From: an uncultured Thermomicrobiales bacterium
GTDB taxonomy: Bacteria; Chloroflexota; Chloroflexia; Thermomicrobiales; Thermomicrobiaceae
Direction of reading: 5' to 3'
DNA length: 36,424 nt
Assembly: GCA_937891245.1 (NCBI GenBank)
Contig: CALAGB010000229.1
Coordinates: forward strand, 1 to 36,424
Shown: positions 1-36,424 of the stretch, piece after piece
Layout: each line of letters starts with the position of its first letter
Numbering within the stretch: position 1 is the first letter of the stretch
Made by a program: the position numbers and the translations under genes
Notes under the pieces: generated by a model
Told to the model about the DNA's origin: nothing
The model's database searches: none
What the model saw: only the letters and a program-made list of their open reading frames with translations

Positions 1-932
1 ACGAGCAGACGAGCGTCTCCCAGATGGAGCAGCCGATTCCGGTCGGCACCGGTTCCGGCTTCATTTATGACGATCAGGGCCACATTCTGACGAACAACCA
101 TGTCGTGGAAGGCGCTCAGAGTCTGGTCGTGACGCTCCCCGACGGCCGGACGTTCAAGGATAAGGACGTCAAGGTGGTCGGCACCGATCCACAGACCGAC
201 CTGGCCGTATTGCAGATCACCGGCAGCAACCTACCGACCGTCAAGCTGGGCAATTCGTCCGAGATGCAGGTTGGGCAGTGGGTAGTCGCCGTTGGCTACG
301 CGCTGGCGCTCGAAGGACAGCCAACCGTGACATCCGGTGTCGTGAGCGCGGTCGACCGCACCGTGCAGGAGCCGGGCAATGACAGCGGCAATCCGTTCCA
401 GCAGCAGCAAGCCGGTCCGTTCCTGTTCGACGTCATCCAGACCGACGCGGCGATCAACCCCGGCAACTCGGGTGGGCCGTTGGTGAATCTCAACGGCGAG
501 GTCATCGGCATCAATACGCTCGAAGCGGGTAGTGCTGAGCCGGGCGTGCAGGCGCAGGGCATCGGCTTTGCCATCGCCATCGACACGGCCAAGAAGATCG
601 CCAATGAGATCGTCACCACCGGGCACGCGACACACCCGTTCGTTGGCGTCAACTATCTCGCGCTTTCGCCGGCCGCCGCGGCGCAGTTGGACATCACCGC
701 TACGCAGGGCGCCTTGATCGAGAGCGTCGTCAATGGCTCGCCGGCCGAAAGCGCCGGTTTGCAGAAGGGCGACGTCGTAACGAAGATCGACGGCACGGAA
801 TTGAAGACCGAATCAGCCTTCGCCGAGATTATCGACAGCCATGAACCGGGTGACGTCGTCAGTCTCACCGTGGAACGAAACGGTCAGGAGATGACGATCA
901 AGGTCACCCTCGGGACGCGCCCTTCCTCGTAA
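1..932 (+). CDS. htrA: HtrA/DegP-family serine protease (trypsin-like domain plus PDZ), 5' end outside window
   Basis: The frame stays open upstream of the listed Met to the window edge. It has the catalytic motifs TNNHVV (His) and GNSGGPL (Ser) and a C-terminal PDZ-like segment GLQKGDVVTKIDG. GC3 bias is strong. Confidence 0.9.
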   Translation, partial: EQTSVSQMEQPIPVGTGSGFIYDDQGHILTNNHVVEGAQSLVVTLPDGRTFKDKDVKVVGTDPQTDLAVLQITGSNLPTVKLGNSSEMQVGQWVVAVGYALALEGQPTVTSGVVSAVDRTVQEPGNDSGNPFQQQQAGPFLFDVIQTDAAINPGNSGGPLVNLNGEVIGINTLEAGSAEPGVQAQGIGFAIAIDTAKKIANEIVTTGHATHPFVGVNYLALSPAAAAQLDITATQGALIESVVNGSPAESAGLQKGDVVTKIDGTELKTESAFAEIIDSHEPGDVVSLTVERNGQEMTIKVTLGTRPSS

Positions 933-1268
933 GGCGCACAACAGCGAATTCACAAAGGCGCGGCTATCCAGCCGCGCCTTTCGCGTTGGGTGGCCCAGCC
1001 TACTCCGCAAGCGATGAGAGAGGCGAGCGATGAGGTGAGAGCCGCCGAAATAGCGTATCGCCTGCCGCTCGGCCCGGCGCAGGAGCGGGTTCGGCAGGTA
1101 ATCGTAACCGCCCGGCGGCAGAGCGATATCGCCGCCGTAGTTCAGCTTGTAGTACGAGCGGCCATGTTGTTCGGGAGTCACGCTGCCGCTGCCGTCGAGC
1201 ACCATCCGCGCCAGGGCCGGGTCGATGCCCTCCAGAAGGTACGGGTTCGGCAGATTAAGGTGAGGCAA
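813..1268 (-). CDS. Doubtful hypothetical ORF or gene remnant lying between two terminators
   Basis: It has a TTG start directly next to the 1272-1297 hairpin. Codon usage looks coding only for roughly 1030-1268 (NPYLLEGIDPALARMVLDGSG...YFGG). The frame then reads through the 954-981 terminator and 120 nt into htrA. Confidence 0.2.
   Translation of the reverse strand: MPHLNLPNPYLLEGIDPALARMVLDGSGSVTPEQHGRSYYKLNYGGDIALPPGGYDYLPNPLLRRAERQAIRYFGGSHLIARLSHRLRSRLGHPTRKARLDSRAFVNSLLCALRGRARPEGDLDRHLLTVSFHGETDDVTRFMAVDNLGEG
954..981. terminator. Bidirectional rho-independent terminator after htrA
   Basis: The hairpin is aaaGGCGCGGC-tatcca-GCCGCGCCttt, a perfect 8-bp GC stem flanked by A and T runs, about 22 nt after the htrA stop. 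Confidence 0.6.
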
Positions 1269-1271
1269 AAC

Positions 1272-1297
1272 AAAAACCGCGCCGGGCGGCGCGGTTT
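1272..1297 (-). terminator. Rho-independent terminator of the DUF1684 gene
   Basis: The hairpin is aaaaACCGCGCC-gggc-GGCGCGGTttt. On the minus strand it is followed by a tttttgtttt tract, and it lies 25 nt after the stop at 1322. Confidence 0.65.
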
Positions 1298-1321
1298 ACG
1301 CGTCGGGTTGATCTCTGATAT

Positions 1322-1858
1322 TTAGGCCGAGCGATCGAAGGCGCGCTCACCCGCCCGGATCTCAACCGTCGTGCGGTTCTGGAACGGCGGGATGACGCAG
1401 ACGAAGTGATCGCCATAGGCGCAGTACGGGTTGTAAGCATAGTTGAAGTCGATAATCAACGTGCCGCGCGGCGTCTCCTGCGGATCGACATAGCGCCCCG
1501 CACCGTACGTTTCGTGGCCGGCCGTTCCATCGCGGAACGGCAGGAAATAGCGGCCGCGCCCCTGCTCGCGGAAGACGACGAAGCGCACCGTCTCGCCCGC
1601 GATCGGGATCTCCACCCAGCCGGCCGGTATATACGTCTTCGCCTCGTCGGTGCCGGTACCGACTTCAATCGGCGCCAAATCCAGCGTCGCCTCTTCCAAC
1701 GTCACTTCAAAGCGGAGCGCCGGATCCTCCGGATAATAGTCGAGCGCCGAGAACGACGCTTTCTGCTCGGGAATCAACGGTGAATTCTGGTGTTCCCGAA
1801 AATACGAATCGCGATTCGCCCGGAACCGCCCCAGCCGGGATGTCGCCTGTGTTGCCAT
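1322..1858 (-). CDS. DUF1684 family protein
   Basis: The segments YFREHQNSPL...DYYPEDPALRF...FREQGRGRYFLPFRDGTAGHETYGAGRY...DFNYAYNPYCAY are typical of DUF1684. I chose the start at Met50 of the listed ORF (MATQATS, ATG at 1856-1858), because the upstream extension has non-coding character. Confidence 0.8.
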   Translation of the reverse strand: MATQATSRLGRFRANRDSYFREHQNSPLIPEQKASFSALDYYPEDPALRFEVTLEEATLDLAPIEVGTGTDEAKTYIPAGWVEIPIAGETVRFVVFREQGRGRYFLPFRDGTAGHETYGAGRYVDPQETPRGTLIIDFNYAYNPYCAYGDHFVCVIPPFQNRTTVEIRAGERAFDRSA

Positions 1859-2083
1859 TGCGGCCCTTCCATGTTCGCTGTCGGATGACCGATCTCTGCT
1901 GCCCACCACCTTCATTTTACGACAGCACGCCAGAGTACGTACGACCACCGGCATACTGGTCGGGATGACAAGGTGGGGAGGGATGGCCTGGATCCTCGAT
2001 TGCACTTCGTACCAATTTCAGGCGGAGATGTCACAAAAACGACACGTCATGCACTATGTAGAGTGAAGGGGGGGAAGACGAGC

Positions 2084-2580
2084 GTGCCTCACTCCGCCGC
2101 CAGGGCATGGGAACTTGGCCAGTCGGATGTCGAACTGATCGCGGCGGCCCGCTCGGGTTCGACCCTGGCCTTCGAGGTGCTCGCCGACCGTTATTACCTG
2201 GTCATTCAGCAGTACCTTATTCGTCAGACCGGTGATCCGGAACTTGCGGCCGATAGCGAATTCCGGAGGATCGCCCCCTGATCGCCTGGCTCTACCTGAT
2301 CGCGCGCAACAACCTTCGTCCGATCCGACGGCAGCAACGACGCTTCCAGTTCCTCTCGATCGATCGACTGCTGCGGACGATCAGCGCCTCCTTCCCGGCG
2401 TTGCACCAGCGTGACATCGCGCTTGATGCCGGCGATCAGGATCTGATCCAACAGACGCTCAACCGGCTCGCACCAGCGGTCCCTGCTGACACCATCGCTC
2501 ATTCCAAAAGTTCCTTCCTCCCCATCCTTCCTCAGTTGGCCGCCTGGGCTGTCCCCGCACCCAGGCGGCTCCCTCTTTAA
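2084..2580 (+). pseudogene. Decayed ECF (sigma-70 family) sigma factor gene
   Basis: Region 2 is split over two frames. DVELIAAARSGSTLAFEVLADRYYLVIQQYLIRQTGDPELAAD lies in frame 2 and stops at 2281. IAWLYLIARNNLRPIRRQQRR (region 2.4-like) lies in frame 1. The spacer between them is too short, and no recognisable region 4 HTH follows. Confidence 0.5.
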
Positions 2581-2735
2581 CGGGAGATTGCGAACGCGCT
2601 CTTGACGGCATGCCCTCGCCGCCCTACGCTTCCCGCAAACCGGCACGATCGAACGCGCGGGCGTCATCGCGGCAGGTCAGTCTGGCCAGCCGGAGCAGCA
2701 CGCGCTCGCGCGAAGAACCCGATGGAGCACCCTCC

Positions 2736-3248
2736 ATGCCTGTCTCGGTGAAACATTCGCAACTGATTTATGATGCGCTGAAAGCGTGCGACGTTCAGCT
2801 CGTCTCGGCGCTACCGGAAACCTGGCTCGTCCATCTGATCCATATGGCCGAGGACGATCCGGAGATGACGCTTGTGCGGCTGGCGAAGGAAGAGGAAGGC
2901 GTCGGCATTTCGGCCGGGGCGCATCTGGCCGGGGTCAAATCGGCGATGCTGATGCAGAACCACGGCTTCCTGGCCAGCATCAACGGCATTGTCTCGCTGG
3001 CGCACCTCTACCACATCCCACTGCTCATGCTGATCAGCTACCGCGGCGAATTCGGCGAGCGCGATCCCTGGCAGACCCAGGGCGGCATGTCGACCGAGCC
3101 GCTCTTACGCAGTCTCGGCATCCCCTACGACCGGCTCGACGATCCGACGCACGTCGCCTCGCGCATCGCCAAGGCGCAGACGCTGGCCGAATCGTCGCTC
3201 TCGCCGGTGGCGTTGCTGCTCGGCCGTGATTTGATGTGGGAGGACTAA
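2736..3248 (+). CDS. ThDP-dependent decarboxylase, alpha subunit (sulfopyruvate/phosphonopyruvate decarboxylase-like, N-terminal pyrimidine-binding domain)
   Basis: MPVSVKHSQLIYDALKACDVQLVSALPE...EEEGVGISAGAHLAG matches the ThDP-enzyme N-domain with the conserved Glu. A GGAG lies 8 nt upstream of the ATG at 2736. The 5' extension in the ORF track is Arg/Ser-rich junk. Confidence 0.7.
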   Translation: MPVSVKHSQLIYDALKACDVQLVSALPETWLVHLIHMAEDDPEMTLVRLAKEEEGVGISAGAHLAGVKSAMLMQNHGFLASINGIVSLAHLYHIPLLMLISYRGEFGERDPWQTQGGMSTEPLLRSLGIPYDRLDDPTHVASRIAKAQTLAESSLSPVALLLGRDLMWED

Positions 3249-3823
3249 TGCTGCGTATCGACGCCATGCGGGCGATCTATCCCGACCTCGAACAGTGCGT
3301 CGTCGTGACGATCATGGGCGCCGTCTCGGCCGAATTGCAGTCGATCGGCCACCGCCCCAACTTCTTCTATCTCCAGCACGCCATGGGGCTGGCATCCTCG
3401 ATGGGCCTCGGCATCGCGCTCAGCCGCCCAGAACTGCCGGTCGTCGTGCTCGATGGCGACGGCTCGATTCTGATGAACCTCGGCAGCCTGACAACGCTGG
3501 CACGTTATCGCCCGAAGAACCTGATTCATGTCGTCTTCGATAACGAGAGCCTGCTGTCGGTCGGCGGCTTCCCGACCGCGACCTCGACCGGCAGCGACAT
3601 CGCCGAGATGGCGGCCTCGGCCGGCATCCCCAACACCTGTAACGTCGACAACCTCGGTGCTTTTACCGATTCATTTGCCACGGCCCGCGCGGCGGGTGAA
3701 CTGTCGACGATCGTGGCCAAGGTCGAGGCAAAGGGGCCGCCGGTCTTCCTGACCGACCTGCCGTTGCTGGAGAATCGCTTCCAGTTCCAGCGCCATCTAC
3801 GGAATCTGCGCGCGACCGGCTAG
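3248..3823 (+). CDS. ThDP-dependent decarboxylase, beta subunit (diphosphate-binding domain)
   Basis: It carries the ThDP-binding motif LDGDGSILMNLGSLTT...DN. A TAATG stop/start overlap with the alpha gene and a GGGAGGA Shine-Dalgarno indicate translational coupling. Confidence 0.7.
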   Translation: MLRIDAMRAIYPDLEQCVVVTIMGAVSAELQSIGHRPNFFYLQHAMGLASSMGLGIALSRPELPVVVLDGDGSILMNLGSLTTLARYRPKNLIHVVFDNESLLSVGGFPTATSTGSDIAEMAASAGIPNTCNVDNLGAFTDSFATARAAGELSTIVAKVEAKGPPVFLTDLPLLENRFQFQRHLRNLRATG

Positions 3824-3852
3824 CCGGTGCAGCAATCGACAAGGAGTGTCCG

Positions 3853-4632
3853 ATGTCTTCTCTCCTGAATGACCTGGTTGCGGCCCTCTCGAGCGGTCAG
3901 CTCCGTGTGATCGATCTGACGCAGCCGCTGGAACCGTCCACGCCGGTCATCGAACTGCCGCCGATGTTCGCACCCTCGCCCGGCTTTTCGATCGAACAGA
4001 TTTCGCGTTACGACGAGGCCGGCCCAGGCTGGTACTGGAACACGATTCAGCTTGGCGAGCACACCGGCACGCATTTCGACGCACCGGTCCACTGGGTGAC
4101 CGGCAAGGATCTGCCGAACAACCCCTGCGACACGATTCCACCAGCACACTTCGTCGGCCCCGCCTGCGTCATCGACGTCTGTACCCAATGCACCGAGAAC
4201 TCCGACTATCTGCTGACGGTCGACGACCTGCTTTCCTGGGAAGCGGAACATGGCCGTGTGCCGTCCGGCGCCTGGCTGCTGCTGCGCACCGGCTGGGCCG
4301 AACGCACTGACCCGAAGGAGTTCTTCAACGTCGACGAAAACGGCGCGCATACACCCGGGTTCGATCAGGCGACGTCGCTCCTGCTGGCGACCGAGCGCGA
4401 TGTGCTCGGTGTCGGCGTCGAGACGGTTGGCACTGACGCCGGTCAGGCTGGCACCTTCAACCCAGCCTTCCCCAACCACGCGACGATGCACGGCCACGGC
4501 AAATACGGCCTCACCAGCCTCTGCCATCTCGACCAACTGCCGCCGACCGGCGCCGTCCTCATCGCCGCGCCGCTCAAGATCGTCGACGGCAGCGGCAGCC
4601 CGGTACGGGTGCTGGCGATCGTGGAGGGGTAA
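3853..4632 (+). CDS. Cyclase family protein (kynurenine formamidase-like, PF04199-type)
   Basis: It has the signature metal motif HTGTHFDAPVHW and is about 260 aa long. It follows the decarboxylase genes after a 29-nt gap. Confidence 0.8.
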   Translation: MSSLLNDLVAALSSGQLRVIDLTQPLEPSTPVIELPPMFAPSPGFSIEQISRYDEAGPGWYWNTIQLGEHTGTHFDAPVHWVTGKDLPNNPCDTIPPAHFVGPACVIDVCTQCTENSDYLLTVDDLLSWEAEHGRVPSGAWLLLRTGWAERTDPKEFFNVDENGAHTPGFDQATSLLLATERDVLGVGVETVGTDAGQAGTFNPAFPNHATMHGHGKYGLTSLCHLDQLPPTGAVLIAAPLKIVDGSGSPVRVLAIVEG

Positions 4633-29772: not shown

Positions 29773-30054
29773 ATGATGAGCGAAGGGATGTTGAACGTGG
29801 CGGAGCGAACAAGGATCAACGCGCGCATGATCGTCGCCTATCAGAATGGCGGGCACCGGCTGCTACGTAACGGCTGCCTCGTAATCGAGGGGAACGAGAT
29901 CGTCCATGTCGGGCGTGATTTCGCCGGCCAGGCCGATCATGTGGTCGATGCCAGGGATCGCGTGATCACGCCCGGCTTCATCAACACGCATTCGCATCTG
30001 GCCGGTTCGCCTCTCGATAAATCGTATGGGATAGAGTCGCATCAAGTGGGATGA
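29773..30054 (+). pseudogene. 5' fragment of a metal-dependent amidohydrolase gene, interrupted by the integrative element
   Basis: Only about 85 aa of amidohydrolase-like sequence are present, ending just after the HxH metal motif (VITPGFINTHSHLAGSPLD). Unrelated residues and a stop then follow. The family is normally 400-450 aa. Confidence 0.75.
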
Positions 30055-31534
30055 TCGTCTTGAGTTCGTAGCGCGGGGTGTGGGCCGCGTTGTAGAGCGT
30101 CACTTCTGCTTGGAGCACCGCCAGGATATCGCGCTTTTCAGCCCAGTCGAGACGCTTCGCTCGACGTGCAACGGTCACACACCATGCCCGGACGTCGCCG
30201 ATTTGTCGCCGTGCGCGTTCCCAGTCATGGCGCTGGCACATGATCCGTTCGCGTTCAGCGCGAAGCTCCGCAAGCCGGGAGGCGTATTCTTCCAACTGCC
30301 GGACAAGCGGCGTGAGCGCGTCGTCATTCGTGACCATCGGGATGGCGGTCGTCACGTTACGCTGCTTGCGCTCAACCTCCCGCATTGTGCGGTCAATCGC
30401 TGCGAGGTTCGCGGTCGTCGGATCGTCTTGCATCCGTCGCTCTAGCTCGTCCTCAATAACGGTGGGGTCGGCCAGGAGCGCCATAATACGACCCCAGACG
30501 GCGGCGTCGAGTTCGTCGGCGAAGATCCATGCACCAGGGCACGCGCGCGGCATTCCCCGAGAATGATCGTTATGTCCACGGCAGCGATAGGACGGCTTCC
30601 CGTGACTCTTCGCCGTCTGAACAACGCGGCCACAATAGCCGCAACGAATGAAGCCGCTGCGCAAGAGCGCGTCTTCGGGCTTCAGCGTGTTTCGGGCGCT
30701 GTACTGCTTGTTGTGCTTGAGCCGGTCCTGTATCGTGCTGTGTTCATCCTCAGTGATAATGGCTGGGATAACGTCCTTCGCTAGGGCGAATTCGCCGCAC
30801 CAGGCAGCGCCGCACCCGGTGTAGTCCTGCGTTGTCAGGATGCGGTGAATCGTCGAGTGCGACCAATAATCCAGACCGCTAGGAGACGGGATTCCATCGG
30901 CGTTGAGCCCGAGCCGTATTCGATTGATCGACGTTCCGGCGAGGCATTCATCGACGATCCGGCGCACCACTTGGGCTTCGTCGTCATTGACGGCGTAACT
31001 GCCGCGGTCTTCGTCCTTGAAGCGATAACCGTAGAGCGGCTTCGGTCTGGATAAGAGCTTACCTTCACCCGCTCGCGCGCGTCGACCGCGTATGACGCGC
31101 TCCCTTAGATCTTTCCATTCTCGCTTCGCGCTATAGCCACGCAAGAAGAACATGAGCACGTCGTCATCGTCGGAGAGGTCAAGATCGTCGGTCACGATAT
31201 GGAACTTGACGCCGTACTGCCGGGCCTCAGCCAATCCGAGCATGTGGAAGAGCGGGTCGCGCGCGTAGCGATCCACCGAGTAGAAGACGACCGCTTCGAT
31301 TTCTCCGGTACGGATGGCGTTCCGGAGCGCGGTCATCTGCGGACGTTCCCAGAAATCAACGCCGGTATGTACCTCACGATAGATTTGTGTCTCTGGCACC
31401 ACGTAGCCGAGCCGCTCAGCATGAGCGATGCACGCGGCTAACTGCGTATCGAGCGAGTAGTTATCCGCCTGTTGCTTCGATGAGACGCGGGGATAGACGG
31501 CGGCGCGGGGTTGCTTCTGTTCCATGGTACTCAT
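29981..31534 (-). CDS. Large serine recombinase (integrase)
   Basis: The N-terminal resolvase domain has the catalytic Ser context AAVYPRVSSKQQADNYSLDTQ...VDRYARD. A recombinase domain, a zinc ribbon (CGYCGRVV...YRCRGH...ACPG) and a coiled-coil region follow. Length is 517 aa. Confidence 0.9.
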   Translation of the reverse strand: MSTMEQKQPRAAVYPRVSSKQQADNYSLDTQLAACIAHAERLGYVVPETQIYREVHTGVDFWERPQMTALRNAIRTGEIEAVVFYSVDRYARDPLFHMLGLAEARQYGVKFHIVTDDLDLSDDDDVLMFFLRGYSAKREWKDLRERVIRGRRARAGEGKLLSRPKPLYGYRFKDEDRGSYAVNDDEAQVVRRIVDECLAGTSINRIRLGLNADGIPSPSGLDYWSHSTIHRILTTQDYTGCGAAWCGEFALAKDVIPAIITEDEHSTIQDRLKHNKQYSARNTLKPEDALLRSGFIRCGYCGRVVQTAKSHGKPSYRCRGHNDHSRGMPRACPGAWIFADELDAAVWGRIMALLADPTVIEDELERRMQDDPTTANLAAIDRTMREVERKQRNVTTAIPMVTNDDALTPLVRQLEEYASRLAELRAERERIMCQRHDWERARRQIGDVRAWCVTVARRAKRLDWAEKRDILAVLQAEVTLYNAAHTPRYELKTIIPLDATLSHTIYREANRPDANAC

Positions 31535-32115
31535 GCGATGGCCTTGCTCGTGTCTGTGACGGCGAGCGAAAGAACTGGATGTGCAGCAGTCTTCTCATCC
31601 AGCCATGCTTGCATGCCGGCACGAATGATCTTCCGGGCATCGGTAGAGCGAATCATCCGCTGTTCAACCAGCGCGTGAGCAAGCGCCTCGACGCCAGCCC
31701 AGTGGTAGGGCGGCATGAGCAGTTCCTCGGCCTTGAAACGCATCCAGTTTGAAAACGCCTTCATGCCGTCCGAGTGGCCGTCGACAATGAACCAAGCGAG
31801 TTCCGAGATAGCGTGTGTATCACCACGGGCACCGATCCAATTGAAGCGGCCACTGAATCGCTTTTCCGCAACGGGGCCAGCCCAAAGAACAATGACATGC
31901 CGCTCAAGGTGACTCTGACTTCGGCTATCAAGGTGCGAATCGATGTGGACAGCGCTGGGCCACGGCGTGCCTTGGACATGACCGGCAGACATTTCTTCAA
32001 GGTTCGGGACGATCGAAACATACTCAAAGCGCGCGCCAAGGCGATAACTCGCGAACGCATGCCCCGCCTCATGAATGGCAACACGCAGGAGTCTTTGCCG
32101 TTCCCGTGCATTCAT
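31531..32115 (-). CDS. Stand-alone FtsH-like (M41-type) zinc metallopeptidase domain protein
   Basis: RVAIHEAGHAFASY (HEXXH as in FtsH ayHEaGHA), LWAGPVAEKRF (compare GGRaAEe) and GARGDTHAISELA (compare tGA.nDl..AT) are all present. There are no AAA+ or TM regions. AAGGAG lies upstream, and an ATGA overlap couples it to the integrase start. Confidence 0.75.
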   Translation of the reverse strand: MNARERQRLLRVAIHEAGHAFASYRLGARFEYVSIVPNLEEMSAGHVQGTPWPSAVHIDSHLDSRSQSHLERHVIVLWAGPVAEKRFSGRFNWIGARGDTHAISELAWFIVDGHSDGMKAFSNWMRFKAEELLMPPYHWAGVEALAHALVEQRMIRSTDARKIIRAGMQAWLDEKTAAHPVLSLAVTDTSKAIA

Positions 32116-32182
32116 AGGTACCTACTCCTTGCTACAATGGGCATGCCTCAGCACTGAGCCAACAGCGCGAGGCGTTACCTAG

Positions 32183-32222
32183 ACTCGCGGCGTAGCGGCT
32201 AACCCCTGTCTACGCCGCGAGT
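32183..32222. other. Perfect 13-bp GC-rich hairpin straddling the stop codon of the HTH gene
   Basis: The hairpin is ACTCGCGGCGTAG-14 nt-CTACGCCGCGAGT. The right arm encodes the last codons of the 32210-32413 gene. A T-run follows on the plus strand only. Confidence 0.5.
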
Positions 32223-32413
32223 TTTCCCGACTCATCCTCGAATCGCTCATCCAAGAATGCCCGGAAGTCCTGCTCACGAATCCGGTAGCCTGTTCGGCCA
32301 CCGAAGTTGTGGCCTGCGAGCTTATGCTCGCGAACCCAGCGACGTACCGTATTGACGTGAACCTTCAGCATGTCGGCAATCTCTTCGACCGTGTACCAGC
32401 GTGTTTCGATCAT
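32210..32413 (-). CDS. Excisionase/MerR-like HTH_17 DNA-binding protein (Xis/RDF or small repressor)
   Basis: YTVEEIADMLKVHVNTVRRWVREHKLAGHNFGGRTGYRIREQDFRAFL matches the excisionase-family HTH pattern. I prefer the ATG at 32413, which has AAGGTGG 8 nt upstream. Confidence 0.75.
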   Translation of the reverse strand: MIETRWYTVEEIADMLKVHVNTVRRWVREHKLAGHNFGGRTGYRIREQDFRAFLDERFEDESGKLAA

Positions 32414-32425
32414 CCGTATCACCAC

Positions 32426-32553
32426 CTTCCTTAGCTAACTATAGCACAACAAGACTGCTCATAGTTAGCGTTAGTTATTGACTCCGATGGTACGCTATGT
32501 TACGCTTTGTTCAGGTAACGTCTCGTTTGTTGGCTCAATGAAGGGAGTTCCCG
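32426..32553. promoter_or_regulatory. Divergent control region of the element (candidate operators and promoters)
   Basis: The region is lower in GC. It has an inverted repeat GCTAACTAT-18 nt-ATAGTTAGC (32434-32469) and a tandem decamer TACGCTATGT TACGCTTTGT (32491-32510). TTGACT (32478-32483), a 17-nt spacer and TACGCT form a candidate rightward promoter. Confidence 0.4.
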
Positions 32554-32943
32554 ATGCTCTATCAGCCGGATTCACTCAAGTGGAAGGATGCGGGCAAGCG
32601 CGCCGAAGCGGCGGGGTTGTCTGCTCGCCTGTTGTCATTTCAGGGAGGCGAACACCTCTGCTGCGAGTCATGGCGCGTGGCGCGACCGGACACCGGCACG
32701 CTGCGGAATGTCTACATCCTCTGGACGGCCGAAGGGATCACGTCGGTCGTCTGCGAGTGCCGGACGCGCGAGCAGAACGAGCACGACTGCGCCTGTTGCC
32801 ACGCGGCCGCGGCCGTCGAGGCGTCCTTCGATCTGGCGATTCAGGATGCCTGGCAGGATGACGACGGCGGGCTCGTGACGGTCGTCACACCATCGAACGG
32901 ACCGGGCTACGCAGTGCCGACGCAGCGGATTGAGTCACTCTAA
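32554..32943 (+). CDS. Hypothetical protein with SWIM-like CxC...CxH zinc-finger motif
   Basis: GAAGGGAG lies upstream of the ATG. VCECRTREQNEHDCACCH fits C-x-C-x11-C-x-H. I recognised nothing else in this protein. Confidence 0.5.
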   Translation: MLYQPDSLKWKDAGKRAEAAGLSARLLSFQGGEHLCCESWRVARPDTGTLRNVYILWTAEGITSVVCECRTREQNEHDCACCHAAAAVEASFDLAIQDAWQDDDGGLVTVVTPSNGPGYAVPTQRIESL

Positions 32944-33422
32944 TGGGAAGGATGAGCGACGTGGATATTCAGCAGCACAACGAACAGCCGATGTCATGGC
33001 GTGACAAGCGCAAGGCGATTGCTGAGAGTATGCGATCGGTCGTCGAGCGATTCGACCCGTTCATCGTAGCGGAATTTCTCTGGCAGACGGGCGCATATAT
33101 GGTGCTCTGGAAGCACTACGACCCGGACGCGCCCGCCAACGAGGTCGACAACGCCAGTTATTGTCAGATTGGCTGTAACCTGAATCTCGCGCCGGCGCTC
33201 GCATTCTGGACACGGGAGGAGGAGGAAGCGCTGTGCGCCCTCTGTGCGGAACGCATAACGGCGCGCTTCGGTCCCTACCTGCACGAGCACATCGCACCGC
33301 CGCATTTCACGCTGCTGCGTAACCCCACCGATCCTGAGCAAGTCGCGGCACTCGGTAACGCGCTCGAAACATGGGCAAACGAGCGTGCGCGTTCGGCAAG
33401 GAAGGGGGCGGACGTCGCATGA
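32943..33422 (+). CDS. Hypothetical protein
   Basis: A TAATG overlap couples it to the upstream gene. Coding bias is good and no recognisable motif is present. Confidence 0.6.
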   Translation: MGRMSDVDIQQHNEQPMSWRDKRKAIAESMRSVVERFDPFIVAEFLWQTGAYMVLWKHYDPDAPANEVDNASYCQIGCNLNLAPALAFWTREEEEALCALCAERITARFGPYLHEHIAPPHFTLLRNPTDPEQVAALGNALETWANERARSARKGADVA

Positions 33423-34036
33423 AGGCTGAACAAATCGCTCGCTATCTCAGTAGGCCATCAATTCAACATAGTATGAAGCGGCTCGCTTATCACGAGGCTG
33501 GGCATGCAGTCGGGGAGTGGTTGACCGGGTTTCTGCCCGAACGCATGGAACTTGAAATAGGAGCGGATGGCGATTGGGGGCATACCACTGCCGGGTGGCC
33601 CCAATGGCTACGATTCCCAGACGGCGATACTCGGTGGTGGCAAAGCCAAGTCTTTAGTGTGCTCGCCGGGCCATCGGCCGAAGCATATTTCGGGGGGCTT
33701 GTCCGGCCGCGCCTGAGTGCAACCGACAAAGAGGCCGTAAATCGCGCGGTAGCGCACCTGTACGCGACGCAGTCCGGTCAACGCGCCTATCTGCGAGCGA
33801 CGCGCGTCGAGGTCGATAATCTCTGGCATGCCGGGAACAATTGGCAAGCTGTCGGGCTATTAGCCAACGAACTCTATGATCGTCTGGTTGATAGCGAAGG
33901 AGAGGGATACGCTCGGCTGTTCACTGATGAGATACGCGACATACTCATCAGCACGCTCGGCATGAACGCCGGACTCGAGGAGACCATGTGCGAGGAGCGA
34001 GTGTTTCTTGACGCGATACCTCCGCGACCGGAATAG
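33419..34036 (+). CDS. Second stand-alone FtsH-like (M41-type) zinc metallopeptidase domain protein
   Basis: RLAYHEAGHAVGEW, VLAGPSAEAYFGG and SATDKEAVNRAV parallel the motifs of the 31531-32115 product. I prefer the ATG at 33419, which forms an ATGA overlap with the upstream stop. Confidence 0.75.
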   Translation: MKAEQIARYLSRPSIQHSMKRLAYHEAGHAVGEWLTGFLPERMELEIGADGDWGHTTAGWPQWLRFPDGDTRWWQSQVFSVLAGPSAEAYFGGLVRPRLSATDKEAVNRAVAHLYATQSGQRAYLRATRVEVDNLWHAGNNWQAVGLLANELYDRLVDSEGEGYARLFTDEIRDILISTLGMNAGLEETMCEERVFLDAIPPRPE

Positions 34037-34050
34037 CCGCTCACTCCTTC

Positions 34051-34085
34051 GGCCCGCTCAGGCTTCGGCTCGGGCGGGCCTTTTC
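34051..34085 (+). terminator. Rho-independent terminator of the rightward three-gene operon
   Basis: The hairpin is GGCCCGC-16 nt-GCGGGCC followed by ttttc, 15 nt after the stop at 34036. Confidence 0.55.
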
Positions 34086-34152: not shown

Positions 34153-34218
34153 TGGAAGCACGCCCCCCATGCGCGTATGGGTGCTATAACCCGTGACAAT
34201 GTAACGGAATATGAAGAG

Positions 34219-34340
34219 CCTGACACCCCCCGCGCGCGCGGGAAGCGCTCAACTGCGGACATGTCCGCAGTTGAAAGATCCTGACACCCCCGCGCGCGGG
34301 AGCGGGCCAATACTGCGACATTTTGCGACATGTTCGGACA
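34219..34340. repeat. Cluster of direct repeats, a 24-nt perfect palindrome and iterated GCGACAT-type motifs in a non-coding block
   Basis: DR1 is cctgacaccccccgcgcgcgcggga (34219-34243) and DR2 is cctgacacccccgcgcgcgggag (34280-34302). They flank the palindrome CAACTGCGGACATGTCCGCAGTTG (34250-34273). The motifs ctGCGACATttt, tGCGACATgt and tCGGACAag follow at 34313-34340. Confidence 0.55.
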
Positions 34341-34453: not shown

Positions 34454-36424
34454 TCATGAGGGCATCGCTCCGAACGGGCTAATCGTCGTGCTGTATTGCT
34501 GCTGTCGGTCCATATCCACCTGGGCCGAGATCACCTGCCCGCCGATATGGACGTTGATCTGCGGGCTGTTGGTTGGCGTCATCCCAACCGCGTTGGAGTA
34601 ATTGGCCGGCGGGTGATAGCCCGCTCCCATGCCGACCACAACCATCTGTTGCCCATTGACGGTGACGATGTGCGCGGTGTTGTTATCGACGTGGTAGTTC
34701 GGATCGAGCGCCGGCGCCTCTCCGTAAGTCGTGCCCGCCGGCGCATAGGGCAGCGGCTCTCCGTTGGCGCCAATTACGTCGCTCAGGCCGGAACTGGCCC
34801 CGCTACCGACGCTGGCCCCGCCACCGCCCGAGCCGCCCGAACCGCCTGAGCCGTTGTGGTTATCGTTGGGGTCGACGTTGACATGGCCACCGGGCACCTT
34901 GTAGCCGAGTCCGTCCTCGAAATCGCCGTACTTGATCTTGACTTCATCGATCTTGTCGCCGAGTGCATCGAGGAGTTGCTCAATAATCCCGATGTTCTTC
35001 TCGATACCGCTCGGATCGGTCCCTTGCAGGAAGGCTGTCGCGAGGTCGACCGTCAGCCCTTGCTCGATCTGTTGCAACTGAGGGATAACGGCGGCGGGCA
35101 GAAGTGCCGCGGCCTGTGCGACCTGCAACGAACCGGTCTCGAGCGACTGAACGATCACGTTTGTCAGCGATGCGCCAGCGTCGTCCATCTGGCCCTCGAT
35201 GGCCCTGATTTGAGCGACGGTCGCGTCATTGACGACCGCGACCGCGTTATCAACCAGTCCGGCCGCTTGCGCCTGGATATAAATCCCTTGCTCAATCTGA
35301 AGCTGTTGGGTCGCGGCTTCGATCTGTTGATTAATGCCGTCCAGAATGGCCTGCGAGGCGCCGGACGCAATCGCGACCGAACGCTCGGTCGTAAGGTCCG
35401 CGATCGTCTGTTGCAGATCAGGAATCGCGGTCCCCTTCAGGATCTGATCGAACTGACGGTAGGCGTCCTGTTCTGCCTGGCCGAACGCATCGGCAAAGCG
35501 TTGTGCGGCATCACCGCTCGTGATTTGGGCGATCGAGCTATTGATGGCATCCGCGACCGTCGTCCCGTTGAACTCTGCCCAGCGCTGAATCAAGGACGTG
35601 ATGTCGTCAAACTGCCCCTGTAATTTCGCGATCTGGTCCGGGTCCGCGCCGGAGAGTTTCGCAAGGTCGAGTTGCTTGGCGATGTCGTCCTGTGTCGCCA
35701 GCAAATCCGGTAGGAGGTTCGCGGTAAGCCGCGGCACCATCGTGTCACTCGACAGCTCCGCCACCATGCCGTCAACCATCGCTTGAGCGATCTGCTTGCC
35801 GTCGCTCGTGGCCGCGTCGATCACGGCCTGTGTCGGGGCCAGTCCATCACCAAGGCTGCGGAGAATCTGCTGCGTCTGGTCGGCGGTGAAAATCTCGGTG
35901 CCTTTGGGGACCAGCGCCAGGCCCGGCGCACCACCGTTGGCAATCCCGACCGTGCCGCCGCTGGCGAAGGCGCCGGCGTAGGGGAACACCATCAACTCGG
36001 GGCCAAGCTCGTTGACCATCGCGACATGGGTCGTGTGGGCCGATGAGAGACCGGACGCATGATTAACCGACGGGTTCCCGGCAATCTGCACCGGCAGGTA
36101 GATCGGTGCGCTGGCCACTGCTCGAATGCGTTCAATCTCGGCAATGGCGGCGGCATCCGCGATCTGGATCTCGATCGGCGGCGGCGACTGCAAGTTATTG
36201 AGTTTGGTCGTGAGGTCTTCGATGGCCGGGACCAAATCATCATGGACGACATCAGCGACTGATTGCATCGCACCAGCCATCGGGTCGCCGCCGAGCCGTG
36301 CCGCTTCGGCTTGCGCATCCTGCACGCCTTTGACCGCCTGTTCATACTGCGGTCCGGAGTTGATACCGTCTTGAACAAGTTGATTGAGCTTGTCCTGAGC
36401 CATCATCAACTCGCCCTTGGCGCC
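34454..36424 (-). CDS. Phage tail tape-measure-like protein (N-terminus outside window)
   Basis: The frame is open to the window edge (GAKGEL precedes the listed start). Long Gln/Ala-rich helical repeats surround a block VNELGPELMVFP...GTEIFTADQT, which is typical of tape-measure proteins. A Gly/Ser-rich linker and a C-terminal globular part follow. Confidence 0.55.
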   Translation of the reverse strand, partial: GAKGELMMAQDKLNQLVQDGINSGPQYEQAVKGVQDAQAEAARLGGDPMAGAMQSVADVVHDDLVPAIEDLTTKLNNLQSPPPIEIQIADAAAIAEIERIRAVASAPIYLPVQIAGNPSVNHASGLSSAHTTHVAMVNELGPELMVFPYAGAFASGGTVGIANGGAPGLALVPKGTEIFTADQTQQILRSLGDGLAPTQAVIDAATSDGKQIAQAMVDGMVAELSSDTMVPRLTANLLPDLLATQDDIAKQLDLAKLSGADPDQIAKLQGQFDDITSLIQRWAEFNGTTVADAINSSIAQITSGDAAQRFADAFGQAEQDAYRQFDQILKGTAIPDLQQTIADLTTERSVAIASGASQAILDGINQQIEAATQQLQIEQGIYIQAQAAGLVDNAVAVVNDATVAQIRAIEGQMDDAGASLTNVIVQSLETGSLQVAQAAALLPAAVIPQLQQIEQGLTVDLATAFLQGTDPSGIEKNIGIIEQLLDALGDKIDEVKIKYGDFEDGLGYKVPGGHVNVDPNDNHNGSGGSGGSGGGGASVGSGASSGLSDVIGANGEPLPYAPAGTTYGEAPALDPNYHVDNNTAHIVTVNGQQMVVVGMGAGYHPPANYSNAVGMTPTNSPQINVHIGGQVISAQVDMDRQQQYSTTISPFGAMPS

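Follow-up and report, generated by a model that had tools for sequence, protein, structure and literature searches.

The locus described here raises the question of whether a mobile element has put a metallopeptidase unrelated to ImmA in charge of its lysogeny or excision. It lies in the window, the whole stretch of 36,424 nt that was analysed (contig CALAGB010000229.1 of GenBank assembly GCA_937891245.1, positions 1 to 36,424 of the forward strand, from an uncultured Thermomicrobiales bacterium), in which three leftward genes encode a small helix–turn–helix (HTH) protein, a HEXXH peptidase termed M41a and an integrase. A first-pass annotation of the window had compared these genes with the immR–immA–int modules of integrative and conjugative elements (ICEs) and phages, and had proposed a control system of novel composition. 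The module may act as a switch of a new type, in which a protease controls lysogeny or excision. What is new here is an HTH/metalloprotease/integrase module of known layout built on an uncharacterised M41-like family, for which we infer a function from context; a new induction switch is thus a reasonable hypothesis, not a finding. The list of open reading frames (ORFs) confirmed the three genes on the minus strand where the annotation had placed them:

32210-32413, minus strand: HTH_17 DNA-binding protein (excisionase/MerR-like, BldC-like), 67 aa, the first gene of the leftward operon (HTH_17, TIGR01764).
31531-32115, minus strand: M41a, a stand-alone FtsH-type (M41-like) zinc peptidase, 194 aa (Pfam, profile search of PDB sequences, AlphaFold2/Foldseek, residue invariance).
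29981-31534, minus strand: integrase, a large serine recombinase, 517 aa (ORF list, Pfam, phrog_95).

M41a carries the motifs HEAGHA (residues 15-20), AGPVAE (79-84) and GARGD (95-99), and its top Pfam family was Peptidase_M41 (PF01434; E 9.8e-6), with a score of 26.0 bits that falls slightly under the gathering cut-off of 29.9. On the same model, M41b, a second paralog in the window, scored 14.4 bits (below the cut-off) and several relatives 31-53 bits (above it), and NCBIfam assigned M41a to FtsH_fam alone. In the alignment, H15, E16 and H19 of HEAGH, G80, A83 and D99 were invariant and E84 nearly so; the invariance of the catalytic residues in 38 of 38 relatives argues for real proteolysis and against purely binding roles. 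D99 matched the Asp in the GAxxD helix of FtsH when aligned (GAENDF in the FtsH of T. thermophilus and A. aeolicus), which we take, from FtsH structures, to be the third zinc ligand. When the family profile was compared with PDB sequences, FtsH, YME1, AFG3L2 and FtsHi alone were recovered at E ≤ 1 (best 7e-14), and extending the search up to E = 10 added a single entry, a DNA polymerase alpha subunit (E 2.1). The AlphaFold2 model of M41a (pLDDT 92, pTM 0.87) led to the same class, the best 50 Foldseek matches in the PDB all being FtsH, YME1, AFG3L2 or FtsHi protease domains (probability 1.00), and it superposed on FtsH protease domains, its C-terminal helical part included, with TM-scores of 0.6-0.69 across ~195 columns at 17-23% identity.

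Membership of the ImmA/IrrE family was considered and rejected: Peptidase_M78/DUF955 was not found in M41a by the Pfam scan at E ≤ 0.1, and both the PDB profile search and the 50 best Foldseek matches led to FtsH-class proteins and to no ImmA/IrrE structure. An AAA+ match was absent from M41a in Pfam and NCBIfam, as was a membrane anchor; the protein begins 10 residues ahead of the HEXXH helix, leaving no N-terminal anchor/AAA+ module, and is thus not an FtsH holoenzyme. Sequence and model together point to M41a as a soluble, ATPase-less, catalytically intact M41-type domain. The M41 peptidases encoded here have no unfoldase and would therefore be able to cut only segments that are exposed or disordered. 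The first-pass annotation had described a peptidase of the FtsH/M41 type, not of the ImmA/IrrE type, without AAA+ ATPase or membrane anchor, and this description held. It had also called for profile searches on the peptidase and its HTH partner; these returned Peptidase_M41 as the best family, no DUF955 at the above threshold and HTH_17 in the partner, and fell short solely in the M41 score under the gathering cut-off.

The genes on either side of M41a are assigned above the cut-offs of their families. The integrase matched three Pfam domains, each exceeding its cut-off (Resolvase 6.6e-22, Recombinase 1.6e-14 and Zn_ribbon_recom 4.3e-11), and the PHROG integrase family phrog_95 (1.3e-79), and its N-terminus, YPRVSSKQQ, contains the RxSS motif with the catalytic Ser; the serine integrase named in the first pass is thus a large serine recombinase. 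The HTH protein matched HTH_17 in Pfam (1e-16; 61.4 bits vs a cut-off of 27) and TIGR01764 'excise' in NCBIfam (2.7e-13; 50 bits vs a cut-off of 28.8), which agrees with its earlier description as an excisionase-type partner. Its nearest DNA-binding match in the PDB by sequence was a 71-72-aa 'putative DNA-binding protein' (6ama/6amk, E 0.01), presumably the MerR-like regulator BldC. The ATG start of the HTH_17 gene is preceded by a ribosome-binding site, GGAAGGTGG, and a GTG at 32425 is an alternative start. The HTH_17 C-terminus (32210-32224, minus strand) reads ...ESGKLAA, an ssrA-like tail and candidate degron; the ssrA-like ...KLAA tail was absent from the HTH_17 homologs in the related loci L050 and L067. 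The peptidase stop and the integrase start share ATGA (gcATGAgt, 31531-31534), an overlap already seen in the first pass, through which M41a is predicted to be translationally coupled to the integrase. The gene order HTH–peptidase–int mirrors immR–immA–int, and the block diverges from the rest of the element, whose rightward operon begins at 32554, both as claimed before.

How far this arrangement recurs was assessed in a small census of 41 non-redundant stand-alone loci, part of which came from a viral collection. A serine or tyrosine recombinase lay ≤ 1.1 kb from the peptidase gene in 9 of 41 loci; among the 12 recombinases in the flanks, nine fell within this distance, vs 3.8 expected if they were placed uniformly (P about 0.002). 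A co-directional HTH gene stood directly upstream in 7 of 41 loci, belonging to HTH_17 (three), HTH_3 (XRE-type, two), AlpA (one) and MarR (one). Absence of recurrent linkage with integrases or HTH genes had been named in the first pass as an outcome that would speak against the proposal, and both counts show such linkage. Ten candidate small ORFs searched to place the remaining HTH_3 and AlpA neighbours gave no match, so these neighbours are given as counts alone. In L018 (an IMG/VR contig, 188-3451), a large serine recombinase gene is divergent from an XRE-type HTH gene (2475-2732), which is followed after 12 nt by the gene of an M41-like peptidase with a ~55-aa N-terminal extension; judged by gene order, this would be an immR–immA arrangement and the closest immR–immA analogue found. 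In L061, a tyrosine integrase gene is followed by an HTH_17 gene and then by the M41-like gene, and on pAtK84b a MarR gene and a 9-nt gap precede it. Moreover, inspection of ten Pfam-annotated contexts of close family members, the window included, identified four (again with the window) as prophage-like elements with a large serine recombinase and two as other mobile-looking or uninformative contexts. In the prophage-like L050 (8001-9482), the most complete relative, 3 nt separate the M41-like gene from the downstream gene of a 321-aa tyrosine recombinase, and a large serine recombinase and two HTH_17 genes are also found across the switch. The linkage of the family to recombinases and to several transcription-factor families is thus real but partial. 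Two further loci are recorded as side observations. L064 (2538-4301) has two M41-like paralogs in tandem (3227-3796, 3783-4301) behind a truncated ORF of a serine recombinase (225 aa). In L055 (6558-8543), a family member on the chromosome and an IMS (Y-family polymerase) gene are transcribed divergently, a hint that there may be a link to DNA damage.

The window itself holds a second peptidase paralog, M41b, which did not appear in the first-pass annotation and which closes the rightward operon:

32554-32943, plus strand: Cys/His-rich protein (CxC...CxCCH), 129 aa, the first rightward gene (ORF list).
32943-33422, plus strand: protein without family match, 159 aa, the second rightward gene (ORF list).
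33419-34036, plus strand: M41b, a second divergent stand-alone M41-like peptidase, 205 aa, the last rightward gene (similarity to M41a, family hidden Markov model).

M41b aligned with M41a over the full length at 26% identity (E 6e-5), kept HEAGHA, AGPSAE and the Asp, and scored 139.6 bits on the family hidden Markov model (HMM). The TAA stop of the 129-aa gene overlaps the next ATG (TAATG), and M41b begins with an ATG that shares ATGA (33419-33422) with the stop of the 159-aa ORF. Both paralogs, one on each side of the switch, are therefore predicted from these overlaps to be coupled translationally to a neighbour gene. The 129-aa protein had no match in Pfam, PHROG, NCBIfam or PADLOC and a single chance-level match in related loci (E 0.004, 15 bits), and the 159-aa protein had no match in Pfam, PHROG or NCBIfam and no homologs in related loci. 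The sequence of the 129-aa protein, VCECRTREQNEHDCACCH, is rich in Cys/His and suggests a zinc finger.

Two non-coding features accompany the divergent operons:

32414-32553, no strand: divergent intergenic (switch) region with operator-like repeats (repeat search).
32183-32222, minus strand: hairpin with a perfect 13-bp stem and a 14-nt loop, between the HTH and peptidase genes (inverted-repeat search, RNA folding).

The switch region contains an inverted repeat with 9-bp arms, GCTAACTAT-N18-ATAGTTAGC (32434-32469), and a tandem 10-bp repeat, ATGGTACGCT/ATGTTACGCT (32487-32506); no Cheo-type LexA box was found in it. Xis/BldC-like proteins bind DNA head-to-tail, and by analogy the tandem repeats would suit such binding by a protein of this type. 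The hairpin overlaps the HTH_17 stop codon, folds at -35 kcal/mol (z = -3.25 vs shuffles) and lacks a U-tract. Its possible roles are attenuation between the HTH gene and the peptidase–integrase genes, or RNA stability. Neither the hairpin nor the intergenic regions had an Rfam match. Downstream of M41b, a terminator-like hairpin (34067-34080) and a non-coding, repeat-rich segment between the rightward operon and a tape-measure gene (34214-34317) were also observed, the latter with two ~61-nt direct repeats (AAGA[G/T]CCTGACACCCCC...) around a perfect 26-bp palindrome (34249-34274).

In an iterative search with a four-sequence profile, the number of 50%-identity clusters fell from 11,288 at E ≤ 1e-3 to 3,857 at E ≤ 1e-10 and to 334 at E ≤ 1e-30, and the best 150 profile matches were all 160-280 aa long. 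M41a is thus a member of a large family of uncharacterised stand-alone proteins, ~170-200 aa in length. On the local family HMM, stand-alone members scored ≥ 76 bits and full-length FtsH genes (512-664 aa, from the fetched loci) ≤ 73 bits, with a tail of more divergent stand-alone proteins at 45-68 bits. The database labels of the family are 'ATP-dependent Zn protease', 'Peptidase family M41' and 'hypothetical'. No relative was found when isolated phages and plasmids were searched with the window protein; a central family member retrieved from them true FtsH proteins of jumbo phages and 'hypothetical' stand-alone genes on Agrobacterium/Rhizobium plasmids, and nothing else.

The element that carries the module is bounded in the window as follows:

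29773-30025, plus strand: 5' fragment of a host amidohydrolase gene, ~84 codons, on the host side of the attachment junction (Pfam, comparison with L079).
30025/30026, no strand: left junction (attL/attR crossover region; comparison with the empty site in L079).
34454-36424, minus strand: tape-measure-like gene, 3' part, truncated at the end of the window (similarity to the TMP_3 protein P0239).

The window DapA and a Nitrolancea sp. protein fall in one 90%-identity cluster, and a Nitrolancea sp. contig from a metagenome-assembled genome, L079, keeps the host gene order with an intact amidohydrolase gene (478 aa; L079 4520-5956; window counterpart 29773-30054). The window fragment matched Amidohydro_3/Amidohydro_1 of Pfam on residues 57-81. 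Homology between the window and L079 in blastn ended at 30025, the two being collinear through ...GATAAATCGT and unrelated past there, indicating that the element is a genuine insertion. The junction falls within the 3' end of the integrase ORF, the stop of which lies at 29981-29983; the final 14 integrase codons are therefore host DNA, and the excised form must encode another integrase C-terminus. Residues 5-222 of the tape-measure ORF were 58% identical to the C-terminal 220 aa of P0239, a 907-aa TMP_3 protein whose gene sits within a capsid/tail/lysin module, which identifies the element as a prophage or prophage remnant. The window covers its left junction, and the right end of the element lies outside. 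The host is a Nitrolancea-like Chloroflexota chromosome, with the prophage or remnant inserted in its amidohydrolase gene. The tape-measure-like ORF has ~430 additional C-terminal residues with a Gly/Ser-rich stretch, and no tail or lysis genes stand between it and the early region, suggesting that the prophage is rearranged or decaying. The tape-measure gene is also where an independent assembly, L001, breaks.

Gene content, fold, catalytic residues, integration site and the recurrent nearness to recombinase and HTH genes are established, and from them we infer proteolytic activity, a substrate and an effect on induction or excision. The scenario that we favour over its rivals, though tentatively and as possible rather than probable, is that M41a is a regulatory protease of a lysogeny/excision module that acts on an element-encoded DNA-binding or recombination protein, following an ImmA-like logic with a different zincin family. 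The divergent promoter region would drive the leftward operon, made up of the HTH_17 regulator, the hairpin, M41a and the large serine integrase, and the rightward operon, which ends with M41b. M41a, made together with the integrase, would act as a site-specific regulatory protease, its substrate being either the integrase tail or HTH_17 as regulator/directionality factor; cleavage would set the lysogeny/excision state. A broader proposal, about which we are doubtful, is that stand-alone ATP-independent M41 peptidases are a widespread but unrecognised group of proteases with regulatory roles in mobile elements, convergent with ImmA/IrrE. They would govern induction or excision by cutting directionality factors, integrase tails or small HTH regulators, and the two paralogs flanking the switch in the window would give opposing or sequential control.

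Several observations weigh against the regulatory scenario. The order HTH–peptidase–int was found in the window element alone among the loci seen and is not a conserved unit; in the closest relatives (three, 38-41% identity) the peptidase gene belongs to the rightward operon and lies at a distance of 3-6 kb from the gene of the serine recombinase, and at least four close members (four of the ten contexts) are solitary chromosomal genes amid metabolic genes. L050 also has an S24-type gene across the switch (a weak Pfam match), possibly encoding a LexA/CI-like self-cleaving repressor. Together with the variable gene position and the chromosomal members, this S24-type gene speaks against a switch module that is fixed and obligate. 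Furthermore, a recognisable upstream HTH gene occurs in about 17% of members, unlike the near-obligate pairing of ImmR with ImmA, and the recombinase frequency of 9 in 41 is inflated because the census comes partly from a viral collection. Domain fusions of family members included none that were informative and none with a DNA-binding domain, and nothing marks the HTH_17 protein as a repressor rather than an excisionase, or as the substrate.

Part of this evidence would suit prophage cargo (a 'moron'), namely a Lit-like protease for superinfection exclusion or abortive infection, whose target would be a protein of the host or of an invading phage and which would have no role in the element's own switch. 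The slot beside the integrase and att end is typical of cargo, the position of the peptidase gene varies among related elements, paralogs or tandem duplicates occur in the window and L064, solitary chromosomal copies exist, and occasional neighbours are Fic, a faint SIR2_2 match, RelE/HigB and AAA_15/AAA_21. However, neither paralog matched a PADLOC defence model (the PADLOC match was confined to the HTH protein, as mad1, a generic HTH_17 match), a consistent defence-island context was not seen in the loci inspected, and the predicted translational links of M41a to the integrase and of M41b to an early-operon gene, together with the repeated HTH-then-peptidase pairs, are more like regulation; we consider cargo somewhat unlikely. 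The large family with its many non-mobile contexts, and an element that looks rearranged, with the tape-measure gene abutting the early region and no tail or lysis genes between, would also be consistent with an ordinary soluble peptidase that came to lie beside the integrase by chance, as genes were shuffled in a prophage undergoing decay. This explanation appears improbable, because recombinases lie nearer than uniform placement predicts, HTH-then-peptidase pairs recur with four different HTH families, and two intact, translationally coupled paralogs lie within one 4-kb switch region.

Two other alternatives were considered. Large serine integrases use 'scavenged' proteins as recombination directionality factors (RDFs), which are unrelated in structure and fall into two size classes, about 7-9 kDa and about 27 kDa (PMC11795197). 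In size, the HTH_17 protein (67 aa) and M41a (194 aa) come close to these two classes. The M41-like or the HTH_17 protein may accordingly be an RDF or cofactor of the serine integrase, derived from an unrelated fold and working by binding rather than proteolysis; the ATGA coupling of M41a to the integrase and the presence of family members near both serine and tyrosine recombinases would fit. Nevertheless, invariant catalytic residues are unexpected in a pure binding cofactor, an RDF obligatorily co-translated with the integrase would block stable integration, and many family members are without a nearby recombinase, making a recombination accessory unlikely. The superposition of the whole M41a model, C-terminal helical part included, on FtsH protease domains raises the alternative of a modulator of host FtsH, which would co-assemble or compete with the FtsH hexamer and shift the stability of phage regulators, a role like that of lambda CIII reached by mimicry. 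Its zinc ligands and catalytic Glu are invariant, unlike in inactive FtsHi-type domains, and its identity to FtsH is just 17-23%, so that we regard such a modulator as very unlikely.

If the regulatory protease scenario were true, a second, unrelated zincin family would be doing the same job, and the control logic would have evolved more than once. A function would then be available for a family of 334 50%-identity clusters (E ≤ 1e-30) and several thousand weaker profile matches, the FtsH protease domain would be able to work without its unfoldase, and a protease controlling a serine integrase or directionality factor would offer a new handle on recombination direction, useful for tool building. 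If M41a were a cargo or defence gene instead, the significance would be modest. The first-pass annotation had known of no described switch of this composition, and literature searches for stand-alone M41 peptidases in the switches of prophages or ICEs turned up nothing relevant.

Protease-triggered switches include ImmA/ImmR and IrrE/DdrO of Deinococcus and, to our knowledge, are so far tied to one metalloprotease family. Like the window module, the ImmR–ImmA–Int system (ICEBs1 and phi105-type; COG2856, Peptidase_M78) combines, in one divergent leftward operon, the genes of a small HTH protein, a HEXXH metallopeptidase and an integrase, and ImmA, like M41a, is a soluble protease without an ATPase. 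Profile and fold place the window peptidase in M41, a zincin family other than that of ImmA (M78), and unlike the XRE-type ImmR, the window HTH protein is of the excisionase-type HTH_17 family and is accompanied by a large serine recombinase as integrase. HTH pairing in ~17% of the M41 family also sets it apart from ImmR/ImmA, and repressor cleavage by M41a is a proposal drawn from that analogy.

With the protease domain of FtsH, YME1 and AFG3L2 (MEROPS M41, PF01434), M41a shares HEXXH, the downstream Asp, the AGxxAE block and the fold over 194 residues; it differs from FtsH in having no AAA+ module or transmembrane segments and in its identity of ~17-23%, and, unlike those of housekeeping FtsH, the M41a and M41b genes are placed in mobile-element switch regions. 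FtsH normally degrades phage regulators, and lambda CIII, which like Xis is tied to FtsH biology, alters their stability. The prophage e14 encodes Lit, a zinc metalloprotease, beside intE, and Lit acts in phage exclusion; M41a resembles it as a HEXXH metalloprotease encoded beside a prophage integrase, but belongs to an unrelated peptidase family, and neither paralog matches defence models. Prophages of the phiRv1 type, which have serine integrases, use a small Xis-like RDF. They resemble the window element in combining a large serine integrase with a nearby, same-orientation, excisionase-like HTH protein of ~7-8 kDa, whereas in the window a peptidase gene stands between the two, coupled to the integrase, and the HTH_17 protein is a candidate RDF.

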